Both the position numbers and the translations under genes were made by a program. A stretch of 63,895 nucleotides of DNA, filler included, from Stramenopiles sp. TOSAG23-2 (lineage: Eukaryota), in assembly GCA_900128395.1 (NCBI GenBank). It is 23 parts of 23 records of this genome, joined end to end, with 100 filler letters (N's around TTAATTAATTAA, not from the genome) between each part and the next. Parts side by side here need not be neighbours in the genome. Positions count along the whole stretch, not along the records: positions 39,066 to 41,745 come from LT651589.1; positions 41,846 to 44,520 come from LT651590.1; 21 more parts are not named here. The stretch is one strand, 5' to 3'. Numbering within the stretch: the stretch's first letter is position 1; each line of letters begins with the position of its first letter. The notes beneath the pieces are model-generated. The model was given only the letters and a program-made list of their open reading frames with translations. It had not been told where the DNA came from and made no database searches. Positions 2,798 through 47,164 of this stretch are shown here, one piece after another.

Positions 2798-3555
2798 ATT
2801 TAGTAATTTCTTCCATTGCATCTTTTGTTGTCATGAATGTATCACGAATATATTTATTATTATTATTATTAAAATCATCGTTTGTAATAATAATATTATT
2901 TGTTACATCCCAATCCCAATGTGCAAAGTTCGCTTCGTGATTAAATTTCTCTGGTGTTTTAATTGGTGTTAATGTGTATTCGTTGTTTTCAGTTACATTC
3001 GTTACTGCAAATACTTGTTGAGTTTGAACATTTTTAACACGATCACCAATTGCAGCTTTTATGTTTGGCTTGATTATTAATGTTTCCTGGTCACTTAACG
3101 TGATATTTTCCCTTACAATATGTTTATTATTATTATTATTCAATTTACGAATTTGCAATGTATTAGTTGATAATTTAATGGCACTATTTCCTTTGTAAAA
3201 TACACGTTCTGCATTATTAAATTTATTCAATCGTTATTTTAATTGGTGTTAATGTATATTCATTGTTTTCTGTAACATTTGTTACTGCATATACTTGTTG
3301 AGCTTGAACATTTTTCACACGATCACCAATTGCAGCTTTCATATTTGGTTGTATTAGTTGTATTTTCTCGTCTAGTAACATAATATCTTCTCTTACAATT
3401 TTGTTATCTTTATCCAGTCTACGCACTTGAATAATATTATCAGCTAATTTAATCGCACTTTCACCATCATAAAATACACGTTCTGCATTATTAAATTTAT
3501 TCAATCGTTTGGATATATCTTGTAATACTTGTATTTTCACACCACGTATATCCAT
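2798..3555 (-). CDS. Hypothetical protein, 5' part only, with a duplicated ~90-aa domain and a frameshift at the duplication junction (~3225)
   Basis: ORFs 3223-3615 and 2742-3230 share LNKFNNAERVFY...KAAIGDRVKNVQxQQVxAVTNVTENNEYTLTPIK. Likely start is MDIRGV at 3555. Runs off the contig. Confidence 0.55.
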
Positions 3556-4195
3556 TTTTTCGACGGTAATCTTCTTTTCTAGATATGATATCTTCGTTTT
3601 CTTCAATTGTTTCAAAAGTACCCTCTTGTAATACTTTGGTTAATTTAGCCAGATGTAGACTAAAAATATATTTATAAAAATTAAAAAGATGTAATTTTTC
3701 ACTACTTCGTCGTATGATTATGTAAAAATACTTTTTATAACTTTTACCAAATATATTTACGGATACAAACAGTATACGTATATAATGAATGTAATTACTG
3801 TTTTGAATATAATATTTCAATATTGTTTTTCTTTCTTTCACTCTTTCTAAACCTACATCTATCCATCTATACATCTATATATATATACATATGTTTTTTA
3901 ATGATTTTCGATTTTACTGAAGTGTGTGAGATGTGATTATTTTTTACCACTAATAAATCCATTTTATCCTCTATAAAACTATTCATAGTTCTACATTTAT
4001 ATATATACAATATTAAAAATATCGTGTTTTAATTACTAAAATACCAATAATAAATATAATTAATAATTAAATATCCGATATTGGTCATTTTTACAAGCAA
4101 CAACAAAATGTTGGTCCAATATATATGGGTCAATATGTGTCTCACAATCACCCTACAGTTCATTTTCTACTCCACTCCAGACACTCCTCTAACTT

Positions 4196-5243
4196 TCACG
4201 TCCCTTGAATATATTTCTCTGTCCTTGCAACCATTTGTTTTTGTTGTTGTTCCCATAAACCAACACTAGCATTATTATTCTTCTTCTTATTATTATTATT
4301 ATTACGACTACGACTAACAACAGCGGATGGAATCGATCTAAATTGCTTTTGACGTGATGATCCACTATTATTATTATTATTACTACTACTATTACCATCG
4401 TTCAATACATCATGTAAATGCCCTAAAACAGTTATACAACTTAATGGAACTGCATTGGTTAAATCTTTTATTTCATCACTAGACAATGGCAATTTACGTT
4501 TTTTAATCAATGCATTGATTATATTCCAATTATGACAATGGATCATCACAATGAATCAATAAATCTTCCAAACATATATGATACCAACCCATGTAATTTG
4601 CAACATCTTTCGTTATATTTTCAACATTTCCAGGGCCTTCAATAGCTATAATAAAACGTGGAAAATCAATGTAATCATTTGGTTGATATTGAATTTTACG
4701 TTTTTGTTTATGATGTTTATTTACACGTCCATATGTCTTTACACGATCTTTTTTAAAACCAGGACGTTTCGATTTCTTTTCCATGCGTTTTCTATGTTTT
4801 TCTGCTTGTCGATTGCTATGATACGTCGGCGTCGTTGTTGTTGTTGGCGGTGTTTGTGTTCCTTGTTGTTGTTTAATATGTCGTCGTATTGGTGTATATT
4901 GTTGCTGGTTATAGGAACCATTATTATTTCTTGATGGTGGTTGTGGTGTTCGACCTTGTTGATTATTAGAATTGGATGGAGATGCCCATCCCCAATTTGA
5001 TATATTTGTACCTCTTGATTCTGCATTTGAACGTGGTGGATTATTATTATTATTATTATACGGTGACGATGATTGCAAATTGTACCCATCATTGTTGTGT
5101 TTATTGTTGTTTTGGTAATGATAATAATGCGATGAGGAAGACATCGATGTTCCTGTTGGCGATGGGGATGTGTAATAATGTTGATCCGTTCGTGTTAATG
5201 TTTTCATTTTCGTTGGCGTTGGTGCATATTGTCGGATGGACAT
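4196..5243 (-). CDS. Low-complexity (Asn/Gln/Pro) protein with a weak nucleoside-monophosphate-kinase-like segment; frameshift near 4535
   Basis: ORFs 4530-5243 and 4196-4549 overlap with the same codon style. FIIAIEGPG...VANYMGWYHICLEDLL resembles the start of adenylate/UMP-CMP kinases but lacks the GK of the P-loop. Confidence 0.4.
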
Positions 5244-5394
5244 GATGATGATTCTTTATGTCTTTCTCGTTATAAATATATGATGTATATATGATGTATA
5301 TACGTGGATTATATAGTAACACCAACTGTTTTTTCTATCTCTTTTTTTTCTATACCTGTGTTTTCTATACCTGTGTATTCTTACGTTCGTTTTT

Positions 5395-8388: not shown

Positions 8389-11083
8389 GCTCTTCGACTA
8401 CCGTAGTAAGTGCCTCTTCTCCATCAACTTTCAAAAGTGTCCACATGGTAAATAATATATAAAGCAAACAACCAGTACCAAAGAACCAATAGAGCCCACT
8501 TTGGCCTGCTCCACCGCCAGCGCATATCGTGCATTTTCCACCAACACGTACATAATTGGCTTGGCAGATGGCGCACAAGGTCCCTGTGTTTCCCTCTGAG
8601 CATTGATCGTCGACATTGTTTTTGATTTCGCCACCAGTGCAATCTTCTGGCATGATGCATGGATAGAATATAGCTTGGTAATTTGATTCACGCCAAAATC
8701 CTTTCCTTGTAACCATCGTTTGCATAGTGGTTTTTGAGAATGCGCATTCAGCATGTTTTGGGCATGGAAGGCAGTAATCACTCCCTAGCGTTTTCTTCAC
8801 AGGATTGTGGTAAAAACCTTCCTGGCATACACAACCTAAGGTGACGTTGAAGATTCCAGTTGTACCATTTGTGGTAGAAAATGGAACAAATTCTACACAC
8901 TTGAGGCACTGAGCCAGTGCAGTATTGCCTGTCGTCTCGCTGAATGTATCAGCAGGACAGTCTATGCATACCGTTTTTCCTTTCGCGTTTTGGTAAGTAC
9001 CGGGAAGGCAAGTTTCACAATGAAGAATACCAGCTTTGTTTGGAATCATTATACTTCCCATGTCGCAGATTTTACATTCCAAGGAGCCTTCTTCTTCGGC
9101 AAAAGAATCCTCGCTACATTTAGAACATTTATGAGTACCTGCGACAGTCTTTGAAGTACCCCTAGAGCAGGGCACACAATTGTATCCTTGAACTTCGTGG
9201 CCTGCAGGACAATGAATTGGCAAACACTTAATATAACCATTTTTTGATTGCCACGATGTATCTAGGGGACAAGGCAGAACCTTGCCATTTTCAACAGTAG
9301 CAATATCAGTTGGAGTATACGTACTAACATTAATGTGTTCATTTGAATATTGAATTCCAGCATATACTTGCATTTTCGAATTGTCATTTAATGGCGACTT
9401 TGCACAGCAATTTGGAAACTCTTCAGAACATGCATTTTCACGAAAGGACGGGTTTCGTGATGAAAAGTCTGCAGTCTGGACAACAAGCCCCAAATCTAAG
9501 GATTGCAAAATTGTTTTTCGCATAATTACAGGCTGTTTATTTTCTCCCCAGATGACATCATAGCCAGAAGTTTTTCTAAATGTGGTGTTTTGAAGTACCA
9601 AGGGCAGATAAACATTGTTCCGATTACAAAACGAAGTGAATACTGAACCATCTTGCCACTTAAAAAAGTCGTTATAACCAATTTCAATCATGCCACGAGC
9701 ATTAATACTCACAAATTTACATCCAATGAATGTTACCGGCGAAGCTTCTGAAATGATTGCAGCGTGGTCACTCATCAAATTCCTGAATGTAACTTCCCGC
9801 AAAATAAGTGGCCCACCTGGCGATTTTGATCTTACCCTGCCGGTTTGGCTCCAGGTGTGGATGAATGACATGTTTGTAAAAGATCCATCAAATATAAGGT
9901 GTTGAATGTTAACTTGCCTAAGTCCAGATCCGTATATGGAAAAACACGGTTTTGGCGGATGGCATATTAAGGTTGATCGCTCGTTCAATTTTGTTGAGTT
10001 TGTGGACACAATTCGTCGTACATTTTTCATTTCAATTGCAAGCGGCTTTATGTAATACTCTGTGTTTTTCTTAAAATACATTGTGTTGTACTTTTGGTAC
10101 AGAGACAAGTCAACAGGCTCGTTAATCCTGGAGTTACTGTTTATAAGCATAGAAGTTTGCGTATTCTTGTACCATGCTATTTTGTTATCATAATTAGATG
10201 CCGAAGCTACATCAAAATCGCCATCGCCGTCAATATCTGCAAGAAACACGCTGTATGCACCCATGGCATTGGTTGAAATGATTTGCTGCGCCCCAAAAGT
10301 TCCTTTCCCATCAACGTTTTCATACCAGGCCACTTTGTTATCATTCCTGGAAGCTGTCACAATATCCATATCACCATCTAGATCTATATCGGCAGAAAAT
10401 ATTCCCCTTGGACCAATGGTGTTTGTAGTTATTATTTTTTTATTTCCCGAAAAATTTGCATGCCCGTCCATATTTTCATGCCATGCCACTATTCCATCAT
10501 TAGCAAGAGATACCAAATCAAAATCCCCATCGTTGTCCAAGTCTGCTGCAATAATATCCCTCGGTTTATAAATGTTCGTTGCAACGACTCTTTCTGGGCC
10601 ATATGTACCTTTTCCATCAATATTCTCGTACCACGTTACCTTATTGTCCCTATAGGCAGTTCCTGCTAAATCTATGTCTCCATCGCCATCAAGGTCTACA
10701 GGTACAACGCTAATAACACTTCTTGTTTCTGTTACGATTATACCCGTTTTAAAGGTTCCGTTTCCATCTGAATTTTCGTACCATTCAATGCCGTTGAAGT
10801 CCATCTTTCCAACAACCAAGTCGTAGTCACCATCCCCATCTATGTCGGCCGCTTGAATTCTCCAGGCGTTTGAAGCATTTATAGCAACGATGTTTTCCTG
10901 CCAAAGTGACGCTTTACCATCTACGTTTTTATACCATACAACCTTATCACTCCTGAACGATGCTGCTAGATCCAGATAGCCATCCCCATCCAAATCTGCC
11001 GCAATTGCACTCGTTGCCCTCTCAGAGCTTAAAGAAACCATTTGTTGTGCTCCAAATGCGCCGTTGCCATCAAGATTAGCGTA
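8389..11083 (-). CDS. Cell-surface protein with FG-GAP/VCBS repeats, a beta-helix-like region, Cys-rich (GCC2/GCC3, CxxCxxG) repeats and a TM segment; partial at both ends
   Basis: Six (A/V)D(L/I)(D/N)xDGDxD repeats each followed by WY(E/K)N. Also CVPCSRG, CETCLPGTYQ, CSEGNTGTLCAIC and a hydrophobic helix near the contig end. Confidence 0.85.
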
Positions 11084-39065: not shown

Positions 39066-39278
39066 GTTGTGGATAATGAGAGAATGTCTAAAAAAGCAGA
39101 ATAGCTTTTAAAAAAAATGACCAAAAGTGTAAAAAAAAAAGTAAAAAAAGCCATTAAGAAAAAAGAATTACCAAAATCAATCACCAGTAAATTAAGTGCA
39201 AGACAAAAAAAACTGTTATCAAAAGGTAGTGATGTGTTGTTATCAAATTTATTAGGAAGTGGTTTAAAATTAATGTGA
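39066..39278 (+). CDS. Lys-rich viral core-like protein, 5'-partial, with an in-frame TAG at 39102-39104
   Basis: Reads VVDNERMSKKAE*LLKKMTKSVKKKVKKAIKKKELPK...LLSNLLGSGLKLM*. Not in the ORF track. Confidence 0.6.
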
Positions 39279-39323
39279 TTATTTAGAAAAATATTTAAAA
39301 TTTTGTATTTAAAAATATTTTTT

Positions 39324-39347
39324 AATCTTTTACCATATTATAACATG
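39324..39347 (+). promoter_or_regulatory. Shared upstream/initiation motif of viral genes, AATMTTTTAYCATATTATAA(C)ATG
   Basis: Near-identical copy at 40687-40708 and a shorter GATATATAATG at 40969-40979, each ending at a start codon. Confidence 0.55.
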
Positions 39348-40676
39348 AATATAGTGCATCCAAGCCTACAATTCTTCCAAGAACCACTTGAAGACAAAAG
39401 TATTGAATCAAAACACATGCAAGTGTACAACCCCAATGATATTGCTCCTGGATTGACCACAAAAACCAGATATGAAGTCCAGGTCGCTGGACAATCTGCG
39501 TTTATTAATTTTGGAGAAGCAGTGTTAGAGTGCTCCGTTAAAGTTGTATCCAACGCTAATGGAGCAGGTCTGGCTAATGGTCAACATACTGCACTCCAAA
39601 ATGGTTTCTGGTCGTTGTTTGAACGTGCTCAGCTACAAGTTGGATCAGGCAGTAGTATAATTGAAGAAGTAAATTTTTGCAATATAGCCAACCAAATGAA
39701 ATATTTAATTTCCAGCACTGACGATAAATTAAGAACTGAAGGTGGAAATTTAGGAGTTTATTTAGATGAAGGACTGACTGGAGGAGCTGAAGATGACGTT
39801 GCTGATAATGCATATAATAGAGGTTTTGCAACACGCATGTCCCAAGCCTCTGCTGATGCTGGTGGTAATGCAAAATTAATTACTTTTTATGCCCCACTAA
39901 AATATTTATTTGGTTATTGTGCCGAATCACGTGTAACAAGAAATCTAAAACACACAATTATTTTAAATCGTGCTTCACATAATAATATGATTCATCGCAG
40001 TGCAGGGGCAGACCCTGCTTTAGTAAGTTTTCAACGCCTACGGGTATGGTGTCCCACCGTAGTACCCAGCCTGGAGATAATTCAACGCTATGAGAATTCA
40101 ATGCTTCAAGGGTATAGTCAGAAGATAAATTTTGAAAGTATGAACTGCTACAGGTCTGGTGTATTTCCAGCCACCGATTTAACTCCAGTATTTAAAGTGA
40201 CCACTTCTATACAAAACCCAACACATATTTTAGTGGCCATACAAAATTCAGCAACAGATAACAACCAAGAGGCAAATAATCAGGTATTTTTAACATCTGG
40301 CGTCACTGAGATGGAGGTTAGATTAAACCAAACTCAACTACCAAGAGAGCGTTTAAACACAGATTACTCAGACTCTAATGAGAATTATGGACGTGCTTAT
40401 CAGATGTTTTTAGATTATCAAAAGGATTTTGGTGCAAATTCCTTAGTTAGTAAAACAGATTTTAAGAATTTATACAACATATATCACATCGATACTACTA
40501 CTGCTGAGCCTATGGTTTTTAATAATGATGGTGGTGGAAATTCCAGTTGTGATATAGAAGTAAGATTGCGTAGGACCGCCAATCAAACTGCAATTCATAT
40601 TTACACATTAATATTCTCAGATACGGAATGTGTTGTTACTGGAACGTCTGGAGAAGTTAGAATTGAGAAGTTGTAA
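39345..40676 (+). CDS. Polinton/Maverick-type double jelly-roll major capsid protein (443 aa)
   Basis: Motif order as I recall it for Maverick capsids: FQEPLEDKSIES...NP, LQNGFWSLFE, IEEVN, FYAPLKYLFGYC, LKHTIILNR, RLRVWCPTVVPS, NPTHILVAIQ, VRLNQTQLP, RAYQMF, DFKNLYNIYHID, LIFSD. Recognised by eye, not by database search. Confidence 0.88.
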   Translation: MNIVHPSLQFFQEPLEDKSIESKHMQVYNPNDIAPGLTTKTRYEVQVAGQSAFINFGEAVLECSVKVVSNANGAGLANGQHTALQNGFWSLFERAQLQVGSGSSIIEEVNFCNIANQMKYLISSTDDKLRTEGGNLGVYLDEGLTGGAEDDVADNAYNRGFATRMSQASADAGGNAKLITFYAPLKYLFGYCAESRVTRNLKHTIILNRASHNNMIHRSAGADPALVSFQRLRVWCPTVVPSLEIIQRYENSMLQGYSQKINFESMNCYRSGVFPATDLTPVFKVTTSIQNPTHILVAIQNSATDNNQEANNQVFLTSGVTEMEVRLNQTQLPRERLNTDYSDSNENYGRAYQMFLDYQKDFGANSLVSKTDFKNLYNIYHIDTTTAEPMVFNNDGGGNSSCDIEVRLRRTANQTAIHIYTLIFSDTECVVTGTSGEVRIEKL

Positions 40677-40705
40677 AAAAAATAATAATATTTTATCATA
40701 TTATA

Positions 40706-40921
40706 ATGCCTTATAGACCACCACCACCCAGAGGTTATAAATATGATCCAGTGACTTACAAATTGGTAAAACATGTAAAACCAGTAAAAACTTTAGGAAG
40801 ACGAAGAAAAAGAAAAACTGGAGGTAGATTAAATGTTAAACAAATTAAAAGTTTAATTAGCAAAGTGAAAAAATTAACCACTAAAAAAAATGTTGCAAAA
40901 TTAAAACAGTTTTTAAGATAA
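40706..40921 (+). CDS. Small basic viral core-like protein (71 aa)
   Basis: RRRKRKTGG followed by a Lys-rich amphipathic helix. Its ATG is preceded by the same motif as the capsid gene. Confidence 0.75.
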   Translation: MPYRPPPPRGYKYDPVTYKLVKHVKPVKTLGRRRKRKTGGRLNVKQIKSLISKVKKLTTKKNVAKLKQFLR

Positions 40922-40976
40922 CAGGGAAAAAAACTAATACAAAATGATATTAATTTTTTTCTAATACAGATATATA

Positions 40977-41189
40977 ATGGTGAAGAGGAAAAAATGTGCA
41001 AGACATTGCAAAAAGAGGCGTGTGGGCAGACCTTTAGGTAGTAAAAATAAAAAACGTAAAAAAAAGACAGGTGGAGCACTACCAGCATTGGCGGTGACTG
41101 GAGCAAAAATTCTTGCTCCAATTTTAATTAGAGAGACAATGAAAAGATTGCGGAAAAAAAAGAGAGGTGGAGGTATGAGGCTCATGTGA
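40977..41189 (+). CDS. Small basic core protein, adenovirus pX/mu-like (70 aa)
   Basis: Basic tract, then TGG, then hydrophobic ALPALAVTGAKILAPILI. This matches the layout of adenovirus pX (RRMRGG-ILPLLIPLIAAAIGA). Confidence 0.72.
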   Translation: MVKRKKCARHCKKRRVGRPLGSKNKKRKKKTGGALPALAVTGAKILAPILIRETMKRLRKKKRGGGMRLM

Positions 41190-41645
41190 AAATTAGAGAA
41201 TGATGAGCCCCTGAGTAATTTTGACCTGGATAAGATGTTAAAAAGGAGTAAATCCTACATTGGTACATGGTCACATGATGCAATACCAAAATTACCAAAT
41301 AAAACATTTAGCGGAATTATAAATTTAGATAAATCAACAGGGGCAGGAACACATTGGGTATGTGTTTACCACGATAACAATAAACCCTTTACAGAATATA
41401 TTGATTCTTTTGGATTGCCTTTTAGCGACATAATAGAGAAAAAATTAAAACAGGTAAAACCCAAAATATTAATGAATTCTTCCAGGATTCAGAATATTAA
41501 AAGTAGTTTGTGCGGATTTTTCTGTTATTATTACATCACAGAGAGAGATAAGGGCAAAACACCTTACGATATTCTTTATAAATTTAGACCTGAGGGAGAA
41601 AAAAATGAAAATATTTTAAGAAAAGCCATAAAAAATCTGGAATAA
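41190..41645 (+). CDS. Adenain/Ulp1-like (clan CE) cysteine maturation protease; frame open from 41190, first ATG at 41235
   Basis: IINLD...GTHWV (His), YIDSFG (Asp) and RIQ...SSLCGFFC (Gln, Cys). PLSNFDL lies upstream of the first ATG. Confidence 0.92.
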   Translation, partial: KLENDEPLSNFDLDKMLKRSKSYIGTWSHDAIPKLPNKTFSGIINLDKSTGAGTHWVCVYHDNNKPFTEYIDSFGLPFSDIIEKKLKQVKPKILMNSSRIQNIKSSLCGFFCYYYITERDKGKTPYDILYKFRPEGEKNENILRKAIKNLE

Positions 41646-41726
41646 TCGTAATTTTTTGTAATTTTAAGACAAAAAATTAGGAAAAATCCGTAAAAAATTA
41701 GTATAAAAATCTGGAATAATCGTAAT
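41631..41726 (+). repeat. 22-bp direct repeat AAAAATCTGGAATAATCGTAAT
   Basis: Copies at 41631-41652 (overlapping the protease stop) and 41705-41726. Confidence 0.85.
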
Positions 41727-42194
41727 GTTTTTAAAAAATATGAAANNNNNNNNNNNNNNNNNNNNNNNNNNNNNNNNNNNNNNNNNNNNTTAATTAATTA
41801 ANNNNNNNNNNNNNNNNNNNNNNNNNNNNNNNNNNNNNNNNNNNNGAATAGGAGATATTGTGTTGATGGTGGTATACATGTGTTTGGTTTGTTATATTTC
41901 GTTTATGTTCATTCTCTTTTTCTGCGATTCATTTTGTTTCTTGCACTTTTCACGTATTACAGTAGCTATATTAATAACTTTAAGTTTTTTATATACTTCT
42001 TGGACTTCAATCAACACTCAACACCGAGCTATATACTTTTCATATTTCATATCACACCTTTCCCTATCAAAACCTATTTTTTATATAAAAATCAAACTGT
42101 ATTATATAATTCTAATAATAACAAGGAAAAACTAGTTTTATAAAAAATATTATAGCACTATACGTATAAAATTTTTTAGAGTATTAAAACCTAG

Positions 42195-44645: not shown

Positions 44646-47164
44646 TCAATCATCTTTATACAAATGTAAATTATTTGCTAGGTAACGTTCACCATCTGCA
44701 AATAACCATGAGACGGCAGCTTCAACATCTACCGTACCAGTTTTACCATCTTGAAAATTACGTAATGAATGTTTAATTAAACCTTTTGGAAAATAACCTA
44801 AACCCATTTGTATGACTTTTTCTATTGCACTATCAACCATTGTTTCTAAAAAACGTGGATCAGTAAATTCTTCATTAATATTCATAATATCAATTGACAT
44901 TTTTTTACTATTTTCTAGAGCATCAGTTTGATTATTATTATTATTATTATTATTGTTGTTATTGCCTTTCATCGTTGCAAATCCATCTTGTTGTTCCTCT
45001 TCTTCTTCATTATTATTATTATTATTATTATTTGTTTTTTTTCGTTTCATATCTGGTTGATTGTTTTTACTGCTACTATTATTATTACTATTATTATCAT
45101 CATCATCATCATCTTGATTATTGTTATTATTATTACGTATATTATTTGTATTATAACTTGCTTCCATTGCTTGATGCATCATATCTTGTTCAAAACGTTG
45201 TTGTTCAATTCGAAAGGATTCTTCAGATGCTTTTTGTACTTGTTCTAATAATGTATCTTCCACATGTTGTCGTTCACTATCACGCATAACACGTTGTACA
45301 ATAATTGCATCCATACCAACTATACCATTCGAATTAGTAGTAGTAGTACTACTACTATTATTATTATTTGTATCATTATTACCAAAAAAAATTTGATTTG
45401 CTTCTGCACGTGATGCTTGTATTGCAGCATTTAATTGACCAGGTGCACGTGTTTTTGCCAATGCAATTGCACCATCTTCCACTTTACCAGGTGTAGATGT
45501 CATTGGTTTCCAATGATGTGGATCTATAATGGAATCATAATGTCCACCTTTAAAAAAGGATAAACGTATTGGTATTTTTTGACTATTATTATTATTATTT
45601 GATGACGATAATGTGGTTGTTGTCGTTGTTGAAGTGGTGCTCATTGTATTATTATTATTTCCAGATGAATTACTATAAGTACTACTATTACTATTATTAG
45701 TATTATTATTATCCTCATCAAAACCAATACCAAATTTACAATGATCTTGTACATGTGCACCATCATTGACACTATCATATGTCCATATTTCAATTCTACG
45801 ACCATATATTTCTGCACATGCACCAATTTCAGGATAATCACCCCATGCATTTTCACCAACATCACGTGCGTCTTGTGCCATCGTACGTAAATATGCCGTG
45901 AAATTACCTCTGGAACCACGTAATGCTTCACAGGATGGTGCAAAATGTTCAGAATTATGGGACATGTATTCAACACATTTACGACGTATTAATAAATGAT
46001 GATTTTCCGTACCATATACTTGATGACTAATACTACGAAATAAACAATTACCATCACCATGGCAACTAACTATATCATATCGTTCACGTTTCAATGCATT
46101 ACGATATGCTTCAAAATTAGAAACATGTTCATTTAATGTACTTTCTTTTGTTTCCGGTCCACTCGTATCAATCATATGACAATTATCATTGGAATGAATG
46201 TTATTATCATTATTATTTGCATCATTTACGTCAGACATTTTTGATGCATAATATTCAGCATTATACATACTTTTTAATTTACTATTACCAATAGTACTTG
46301 AGCGTGTAGTTGGTGATGTTGGATTAGAGGATGACGTTTTACCACCTGCGCCGCCGCCGCCACCACCACCAGTATTACTATTATTATAATTATTTGTCTT
46401 GCTAGATTCATGTTGTTCATTATTATCATCATTTAAGGCTGTTTTTTGTCCAGGTACAGGTGTATATCTTACAATATATAAGGAAACACGTTCATTGGTA
46501 GTATTTCTTATTTGATTGTTTAACATATCATTGCTACTACGTTTACTACTTCCACCATTGTTGTTATTATAATTATTAGTAGAATATTTACCACGTGATA
46601 AAACGACGGAACATAATACGTCATTTTGATATTGTTGACCAGCATATACAACACGTTGCATATTCCATGGTAAATTAATAACAGGTTGTAATCGTAATTT
46701 TAATTGCTTTACAGTTTCATTTGGATAAATATTAAATTCATAATCAGTAGTTGGACGATTGTTTCGAGTTGTAGTAGCTGATGATGATGATACTTTACTA
46801 CCTGCACTGTTATTATTTAATCTACGACTATAATAACTATTACGATTAGTACTTGCTGCTATTGGATTGCTGTTTTATTTTTTTTATTTGTGTAAATTTG
46901 TATGATTTGACATATTATATATTTTGGTTGTTATGTGTTAATTTTGTTGATTGAAATAAATTAATAATTATTGTATCCTAGTTAATGTATAGGTAATTAT
47001 TGTTTAGTTAGTGTATGTGTGTATGTTGTAACTTACATGACTTTGATGTATACTGGTATAGGTGGAATACTATTGATTTCACTAACACTTGGATGTACGT
47101 TTAAATAATCATCTTGTCGTTGTTCACGATATCGTTCATCATCATCATTGATATTATTATTCAT
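44646..47164 (-). CDS. OTU-domain deubiquitinase (OTUD5-like) with UIM-like and C-terminal UBA-like segments; intron 46870-47036
   Basis: GDGNCLFRS, WG and HYDS catalytic motifs. The frame is open upstream of 46661 and splices (GTAAGT...CAG) in frame to an ATG exon at 47164. Confidence 0.9.

Follow-up and report, generated by a model that had tools for sequence, protein, structure and literature searches.

Gene content and gene order

We analysed a stretch of 63,895 nucleotides (positions 1-63895, here called the window) from the assembly of the protist Stramenopiles sp. TOSAG23-2, and within it a compact block of virus-like genes at 39066-41745. An earlier note on this DNA had taken the block for the structural (morphogenesis) module of a virus of the Preplasmiviricota type, an assignment borne out here by the capsid profile and fold, the protease and the gene order in relatives. 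The block occupies exactly one contig of 2,680 bases. The window itself is a chain of 23 contigs of 2,663-2,697 bp in descending length, with N44-TTAATTAATTAA-N44 spacers between them. Since these contigs are separate and joined by spacers, their adjacency in the window has no genomic meaning.

Five co-directional open reading frames (ORFs) are found on the + strand of the contig (Table 1). They are separated by gaps of 66, 29, 55 and 45 nt, and 87% of the contig is coding. This compact arrangement agrees with the earlier description. The accompanying statement that it is unlike the host contigs holds only in part, as many neighbouring contigs likewise have long uninterrupted ORFs.

All five genes are kept in the same order in a metagenome contig of 5,318 bp (L001), which encodes a penton-like protein of 262 aa, a 172-aa protein, the capsid, proteins of 67 and 78 aa, and the protease. 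A second metagenome contig of 2,405 bp (L002) carries the first three genes and the start of the fourth, again in this order (183-aa protein, capsid, 66-aa protein and the start of the next gene). The small ORFs are genes and not chance frames, because they are conserved in order and in sequence in these relatives. The 262-aa protein of L001 has no Pfam match; in the language-model atlas it resembles proteins of about 250 aa from Preplasmiviricota and Nucleocytoviricota, which we use as a lead only. A further relative is a EukProt protein of 498 aa (g9911.t1, here P0008), whose capsid part is 53% identical to the window capsid. In this gene model a capsid is fused to the central part of an ORF4-like basic protein and to the final residues of a protease; most likely this is an artefact that arose when intron-aware gene prediction met a compact viral locus.

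Table 1. Features of the contig at 39066-41745, with amino acid identity to the metagenome relatives
Feature	Position	Strand	Identity	Remarks
Major capsid protein (profile and modelled fold), 443 aa, intact	39345..40676	+	55-58% to relatives	PF21738, double jelly-roll model
Clan CE adenain-like cysteine protease (modelled fold)	41190..41645	+	59% to L001	ATG ORF 41235-41645, 136 aa
3' end of the gene for a 172-183-aa basic virion protein	39066..39278	+	54% to L001 172-aa protein	earlier ORF1, 39117-39278
ORF3, small basic protein, 71 aa, pI 11.6	40706..40921	+	N-terminus, 58% to L001 67-aa ORF	candidate core-protein precursor
ORF4, small basic protein, 70 aa, pI 12.0	40977..41189	+	core, 64% to L001 78-aa ORF	candidate DNA-condensing pX-like core protein
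AT-rich motif abutting the capsid ATG (...TTTTACCATATTATAA)	39312..39343	+		second copy 40675-40706, upstream of ORF3
3' non-coding tail with 27-nt direct repeat	41631..41731	+		repeats D2, I5

The major capsid protein

The 443-aa product of the second ORF matches the Pfam family PF21738 (DJR-like_dom) with 53.1 bits (cutoff 27, E 3.6e-14), and no other Pfam capsid family is found at E<=1. The same family is matched by 43 of 46 aligned capsid relatives. An exhaustive phmmer search with the capsid returned 516 representative relatives at E<=1e-3, with 24 at E<=1e-30 and 8 at E<=1e-54, and a word-indexed search returned four proteins. The AlphaFold2 model built from the alignment of relatives has a pLDDT of 88.7 and a pTM of 0.87. 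Foldseek places this model against 254 PDB entries at E<=0.001, led by double jelly-roll (DJR) capsids with probability 1.00. The best matches are the capsids of Sputnik virophage, Singapore grouper iridovirus (SGIV), PBCV-1 (Vp54), EhV-201, mavirus and faustovirus. Against BFVD, the best matches are capsids of virophages, giant viruses and a 'MELD virus', together with adomavirus LO7. By its profile and its modelled fold, the 443-aa ORF is thus a DJR major capsid protein, as the earlier note had suggested when it called the protein capsid-like and named a structure check; the presence of two jelly rolls was judged from the model and its fold matches, not from a strand-by-strand count. The outcome that the note had said would refute it, neither a DJR fold nor a Polinton capsid hit, did not occur.

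The type of capsid is a separate question. The Sputnik entry 3j26 stands first (E 6.0e-16, TM 0.61), directly followed by iridovirus and chlorovirus capsids (6.4e-16 and 7.1e-16), and the mavirus entries 6g43-6g45 lie at about 1e-13. Because the top three E-values are tied, the fold ranking does not discriminate among virophage-type capsids, those of nucleocytoplasmic large DNA viruses and Maverick-type capsids. The earlier proposal of a capsid closer to the Maverick type than to virophages is therefore weakly supported: PF21738 as the only sequence match speaks for it, and the fold ranking does not add to it. At the sequence level no PDB capsid is found, including the Sputnik and mavirus chains. 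The language-model atlas gives, as leads only, clusters from animal genomes (Nematoda, Echinodermata) and from Preplasmiviricota, some of them with PF21738. The adomavirus hexon LO7 matches PF21738 by HHpred, according to PMC13696692.

The nearest capsid proteins are unnamed metagenome sequences at the identities given in Table 1. No relative was found in IMG/VR by pattern scans with the capsid, two of its relatives and two alignments, nor among GTDB genome contigs, and tblastn against a phage collection gave no match. PHROGs gave none for any of the five proteins. As judged from these sequence searches, the capsid clade is thinly sampled.

The protease

The fifth gene encodes a cysteine protease. 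In the 136-aa ORF the catalytic residues, counted on the sequence, are H40, D57, Q86 and C93, in the H-D-Q-C order claimed before. The stretch HW..D..Q..C aligns with S273R of African swine fever virus (E 7.8e-5) and is conserved in L001. A model built from only 3 sequences has a pLDDT of 70.5, that is, moderate confidence. Its five best PDB matches are all adenovirus proteinases (1avp, 1nln, 4pie, 4piq and 4wx4), with 1avp at E 1.2e-5 and TMq 0.68, followed by SseL, S273R, mpox I7L and Ulp1. On the evidence of this model the ORF has the adenain/Ulp1 fold and is a member of clan CE.

The protease frame is open from 41190, directly after the TGA of ORF4. The eight codons before the ATG (LSNFDLDK) encode an identical peptide in L001, with DNA that differs at five positions; all five differences are synonymous, including a switch between AGT and TCT serine codons. 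Variants from two environmental runs, X2 and X3 (see below), add two more synonymous changes in this stretch (41226 and 41231). The model shows a helix on the residues preceding the ATG. In the apparent gap 41190-41234 the protein conservation begins at about 41211, where a CTG is found that is conserved in L001. The stretch upstream of the ATG is thus very probably translated. Since it is conserved as protein, the real N-terminus of the protease is probably upstream of the ATG, and we infer the CTG at 41211, a non-AUG codon, as the favoured start.

Read-through of the ORF4 TGA into the protease was considered as well. ORF4 and the protease are in the same frame in the window and in a -1 frame relation in L001, which makes read-through less likely than a non-AUG start. 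A search for proteins near the protease in length returned one 82-aa fragment and a search for longer ones nothing, so no fused form was found, which is weak evidence.

The basic proteins

Three small basic proteins had been described on the contig. Basic they are, with isoelectric points (pI) of 10.8 for ORF1 and the values in Table 1 for ORF3 and ORF4, and with 30-39% lysine and arginine. They are also conserved, but ORF1 is not a free-standing gene of 53 aa. Read from the first base of the contig, its frame aligns with residues 106-172 of the 172-aa protein of L001 (BLASTP, 54% over 67 residues, E 5e-19). The homology continues upstream of the ATG across an in-frame TAG at 39102-39104. As it crosses this codon and reaches the first base, ORF1 represents the last part of a longer gene, truncated where the contig stops. 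The TAG sits 37 nt from that end; the Logan piece around it has a depth of 5.1, and no other run examined spans the site.

A reading of TAG as a sense codon is supported neither by the host ORFs nor by the relatives. With it, 3 of the 22 other contigs would gain 3-15 codons in their longest host ORF. Among 30 host ORFs of at least 200 codons that end in a stop, one has TAG as that stop (3 more run off the contig end), and the genes of the relatives stop with TAA in 13 of 13 cases. Likewise, ORF1 and the capsid are in frame in the window, and read-through of the ORF1 TGA into the capsid is ruled out by further in-frame stops in this gap in L001 and L002.

In L001 the 172-aa gene is located between the penton-like and capsid genes. 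In adenoviruses and adomaviruses the position between penton and capsid is that of pVI and of Macc, respectively. The C-terminus of ORF1 reads LLGS-G, and LxGxG followed by a four-residue tail is found at the C-terminal end in 3/3 members of the family; MxGDG occurs near the N-terminus in 2/2 members of the 172-aa family. Adenain cleaves at a type-1 consensus (M/I/L)xGx-G. Both motifs fit this consensus and are candidate cleavage sites. In Pfam, ORF1 has only a chance-level match at E<=1.

ORF3 carries an N-terminal PPPPRGYKY and a run of arginine and lysine followed by GG (KRKTGG-R); the GG after the basic run is kept in 3/3 family members. Its similarity to the 67-aa ORF at the same position in L001 covers the first 31 residues. 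ORF4 is composed, in order, of GRP-GSKNKK, which we take to be an AT-hook-like motif, KKKTGG, an 18-residue hydrophobic stretch (ALPALAVTGAKILAPILI), KKKRGG and a C-terminal GMRLM. An internal duplication of 22 nt (D3) encodes the two lysine-rich GG sites, and the similarity to the 78-aa ORF at the same position in L001 extends over 33 residues. In its charge, GG sites and hydrophobic tail ORF4 presumably resembles adenovirus pX. Neither ORF3 nor ORF4 matches a Pfam family at E<=1.

A C-terminal pentapeptide G-[LM]-[KR]-L-[MLI] is observed on two unrelated basic proteins of each element. In the window it is GLKLM (39264-39278) and GMRLM (41175-41189), in both cases followed by TGA where the relatives use TAA; in L001 it is GLRLI (1594-1608) and GLRLL (3508-3522). 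This common pentapeptide may be a docking or cofactor peptide.

Environmental counterparts and selection

Parts of the contig are found in 20 public runs from 16 studies. Four of them (X1-X4) were compared; the other sixteen (X5-X20) cover shares of 0.05-0.09, on which no claim is based. In X1 the contig is covered by three pieces with depths of 5.1, 15.7 and 14.3, none of which reaches beyond either end. X2, a marine metatranscriptome, contains a 706-nt contig that runs from the end of ORF4 through the protease into the 3' tail and shows 12 differences over 686 nt. At least 8 short pieces with 4-27 differences each are found in X3, a 'viral metagenome'. X4, a marine metagenome, contributes two stretches, one of 169 nt without differences and one of 164 nt with a single one. 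Counterparts in marine samples are 93-100% identical to the contig, and coverage gaps in X2-X4 are no evidence of absence.

The differences are overwhelmingly synonymous. Of 25 listed between the capsid and X3, 21 fall on third codon positions and 2 change the residue (L254I and V320I); in ORF4 and the protease 7/9 are synonymous for X2 and 7/9 for X3. These counts cover the listed differences from short contigs, with 65 further differences outside the list. Purifying selection thus acts on the genes, which we take to be functional, in a population spread across several marine samples. The near-identical marine copies together with this selection fit a circulating virus or a widespread, still-active provirus, and not a decaying relic.

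X1 also contains a second contig, of 6,198 nt, which matches the window only at 39087-39119 and 41028-41072. Between these points it has 1,907 unlike letters against 1,908 in the window, and its loose end translates to a peptide present in P0008. Its depth is 243.5; in amplified samples, depth is no measure of copy number. As this contig is a divergent relative, two members of one lineage co-occur in X1, a pattern compatible with several integrated copies of one family or with a mixed infection.

CpG content had been used in the earlier note as a sign of a young or active element, the capsid ORF being said to contain many CpGs. It contains 26, with an observed/expected ratio of 0.56, and the ratio of the whole contig (0.56) is the lowest of the 23 contigs (range 0.56-1.32; host contigs 0.62-1.32). 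The argument therefore fails, and with host contigs that show no CpG depletion the ratio is a poor guide to age here.

Nature of the element

We read the contig as a fragment of the late (morphogenesis) block of a small double-stranded DNA (dsDNA) virus of the Preplasmiviricota, the assemblage of polintons, polinton-like viruses (PLVs) and virophages, recovered together with the DNA of an AT-rich eukaryote. We put the probability of this reading at roughly 0.85. In such a virus, trimers of the capsid protein would build an icosahedral shell, and the penton gene, for which L001 has a candidate, would lie upstream of the reach of the contig. The basic proteins would be packaged as precursors with the AT-rich genome. 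ORF4 could be the main DNA-condensing protein, binding AT-rich DNA via GRP-GSKNKK. During maturation the protease would trim the basic precursors at Gly-Gly or LxGx-G sites, in a manner like that of adenovirus pVI, pVII and pX.

Several observations weigh against this interpretation or parts of it. The window protease scores 16.5 bits against PF00770 (Peptidase_C5, E 0.0072), below the cutoff of 21.3, which is passed by its orthologue in L001 (26.3 bits, 59% identical). The small proteins have no relevant sequence match in the PDB and no Pfam membership in the pX or pVI families, and the processing and DNA-binding model is predicted from motifs and positions. By ORFs and Pfam, the contig and L001 contain no protein-primed DNA polymerase B (pPolB), primase-helicase, rve integrase or packaging ATPase; the contig is a fragment, so this absence does not extend to the whole element. 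The in-frame TAG, either a real nonsense mutation or an end-of-contig error, could mean that this copy is defective. As for the environmental counterparts, X1 may be the contig's own source and not an independent one, RNA libraries can hold DNA so that X2 is no proof of transcription, and 'viral metagenome' is the label of the X3 record only.

Terminal inverted repeats are likewise absent from the contig, in which only short, internal inverted repeats were detected, and neither of its ends carries a host junction or a terminal repeat. By itself the contig is compatible with an element integrated in the cell, infecting it, or just attached to it or taken up as food. A fragment lacking polymerase, integrase, ATPase and terminal repeats is compatible with a polinton, a PLV and a virophage alike. 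The protease narrows this choice only slightly: in PMC10120064, a cysteine protease belongs to the gene core of virophages and of the PLV group called Gossevirus, and it is annotated in endogenous elements.

Comparison with known systems

The late module of polintons, adintoviruses and adomaviruses (Penton - Macc/pX-like - Hexon - Adenain) has the capsid family PF21738 in common with the contig. It further includes an adenain-like protease and small basic or membrane-active core-like proteins near the capsid gene, both of which are present here. The order penton, small protein, capsid and, further on, protease in L001 mirrors the adomavirus order LO5-LO8, as given in PMC13696692. Among the differences, the 2.7-kb contig and the 5.3-kb L001 show no pPolB or rve integrase, no FtsK-type ATPase and no terminal inverted repeats, and the capsid is short (443 aa). 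The protease is minimal, with 136-147 aa against about 204 for adenain. Two basic proteins also separate the capsid gene from the protease gene here. The contig comes from a protist, while adintovirus-like virion proteins are apparently restricted to animals, according to PMC8502044. PLVs are similar in being small dsDNA viruses or proviruses from aquatic settings, with unicellular eukaryotes as hosts and a DJR capsid plus a penton (L001 has a penton-like gene), and like the contig they occur in protist assemblies and aquatic metagenomes (PMC7805220 and PMC10120064). Literature searches returned only general papers on PLVs, adintoviruses and virophages, and the capsid was not compared with published PLV or polinton reference sets.

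Adenovirus maturation offers a second parallel. Adenovirus proteinases head the matches of the protease model, the candidate substrates carry LxGx-G or GG-x sites, the gene of the ORF1 family occupies the pVI position directly upstream of the capsid, and the basic segment, GG and hydrophobic tail of ORF4 presumably resemble those of pX. The likeness of the small proteins is one of position, charge and GG sites, with no detectable homology. A cofactor peptide for the protease is at most putative here, and the capsid, at 443 aa, lacks the towers of the adenovirus hexon.

With the virophages Sputnik and mavirus the element shares a DJR capsid of similar fold and a clan CE maturation protease. Its capsid differs in having no sequence-level similarity to the PDB capsids of these two.

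Alternative explanations

The contig could be part of an endogenous, integrated Polinton/Maverick or PLV provirus, one of several copies and already beginning to decay, with the TAG as its sign. The second divergent relative in X1 (6,198 nt, depth 243.5) would suit this, as multi-copy families are typical of integrated elements (PMC10120064), and the in-frame TAG falls in a conserved gene. Neither a host flank, nor an integrase, nor a terminal repeat is found on the contig, though, and the depth in X1, an amplified sample, is unreadable as copy number. The overwhelmingly synonymous differences to the environmental copies also argue against decay. Composition was another candidate link to the host: the guanine-cytosine (GC) content of the contig is 0.326, inside the range of the host contigs (0.26-0.41). 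But the relatives have the same GC (L001 0.340, L002 0.326). The lineage as such is thus AT-rich, which is no evidence for residence in this host, and composition is ruled out as a host link. We consider an endogenous provirus of this kind possible, but somewhat doubtful.

Next, the contig may be foreign to the protist and derive from a free particle, prey or a contaminant carried along with the cell in sorting or amplification. Bulk marine and 'viral' metagenomes from other studies hold near-identical sequence, and no physical link to the host contigs exists, since the window consists of separate contigs. Against this origin, the presence of two related elements in X1, a small run of 8 million letters, is more easily explained by infection or integration, and we regard it as rather unlikely. 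A virophage-type hyperparasite dependent on a giant virus in the same protist is improbable: the Sputnik capsid as top PDB fold match, virophage capsids high in BFVD, a cysteine protease that is a core gene of virophages and Gossevirus PLVs (PMC10120064) and an AT-rich motif abutting start codons, which would suit cytoplasmic transcription of the giant-virus type with short leaders, are all consistent with it, but Sputnik is tied with the iridovirus and chlorovirus capsids (6.0e-16 against 6.4e-16 and 7.1e-16), no sequence match to PDB virophage capsids exists, the motif is possibly a mere AT-rich leader, and no giant-virus gene is seen among the longest ORFs of the other contigs scanned (20 of 22).

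Significance

Within the preferred interpretation, as a late-block fragment of a small Preplasmiviricota virus, a more specific possibility is that the contig, L001, L002 and the second element of X1 represent an undescribed lineage of marine protist viruses. It would combine a short PF21738 capsid with a minimal adenain, some 140 residues long and CUG-started, with a precursor in the pVI position that has consensus sites at either end, and with an AT-hook pX-like core protein. We offer this only tentatively and think it unlikely as it stands. If it were true, core-protein processing of the adenovirus/adintovirus type would be pushed back to viruses of unicellular eukaryotes, and a direct cell-virus link would be provided for an uncultured protist.

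PLVs, integrated forms included, abound in protists and aquatic samples, and few are tied to a host. A fragment recovered with protist DNA that has 93-100% identical marine counterparts is a candidate virus-host pair, and it adds to a sparsely sampled capsid clade. The basic proteins with Gly-Gly sites and the AT-hook-like motif are candidates for genome condensation and maturation in small viruses. The picture of the virus group is unchanged: this kind of virus is already well known, and the fragment is too short for defining a new family.

Non-coding motifs

The two copies of the AT-rich motif in Table 1 form a direct repeat (D1) of 32 nt and 78% identity. Similar TACATATTATA/TACATAGTATA sequences are found upstream of the capsid genes of L001 and L002. 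The motif (ATATTATA) may be a shared late promoter or initiator, or just an AT-rich leader sequence.

In the 3' tail, the copies of repeat D2 are located at 41631-41657 and 41705-41731 and are identical at 26/27 positions. The first overlaps the protease stop, the second lies 74 nt downstream of it, and the contig ends 14 nt beyond the second. An imperfect hairpin (I5) is formed between them (41639-41659 / 41669-41689). The 19-nt core of D2 occurs twice in the window against 0 expected. Repeat and hairpin may act as a terminator, or may have caused the assembly break.

Downstream of the protease, L001 continues (4013-5316) with a Cys/His-rich ORF of 76 aa and, on the opposite strand, a 226-aa ORF with a coiled coil and a Cys-rich part and a 96-aa ORF that runs open to the contig end and looks as if it spans a membrane. 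For none of the three is there a Pfam match at a meaningful level.

Neighbouring contigs

In 20 of the 22 other contigs the longest ORFs were scanned against Pfam; 11 contigs gave matches, with no viral hallmark gene among them. The families are eukaryotic aspartyl protease, myotubularin phosphatase, ankyrin repeats (two contigs), OTU, ThiF-rhodanese, FG-GAP, PhyH, a GTPase and DUF3089. As these neighbours code for eukaryotic protein families, the earlier description of a protist assembly is reasonable. Two of them have genes of the sort typical for AT-rich eukaryotes. One, at 44649-46874 on the - strand, encodes an OTU-domain protein in which asparagine and threonine form long runs; the other, at 8390-11083, also on the - strand, has an FG-GAP/ephrin-receptor-like frame of 898 codons that is open at both contig ends.

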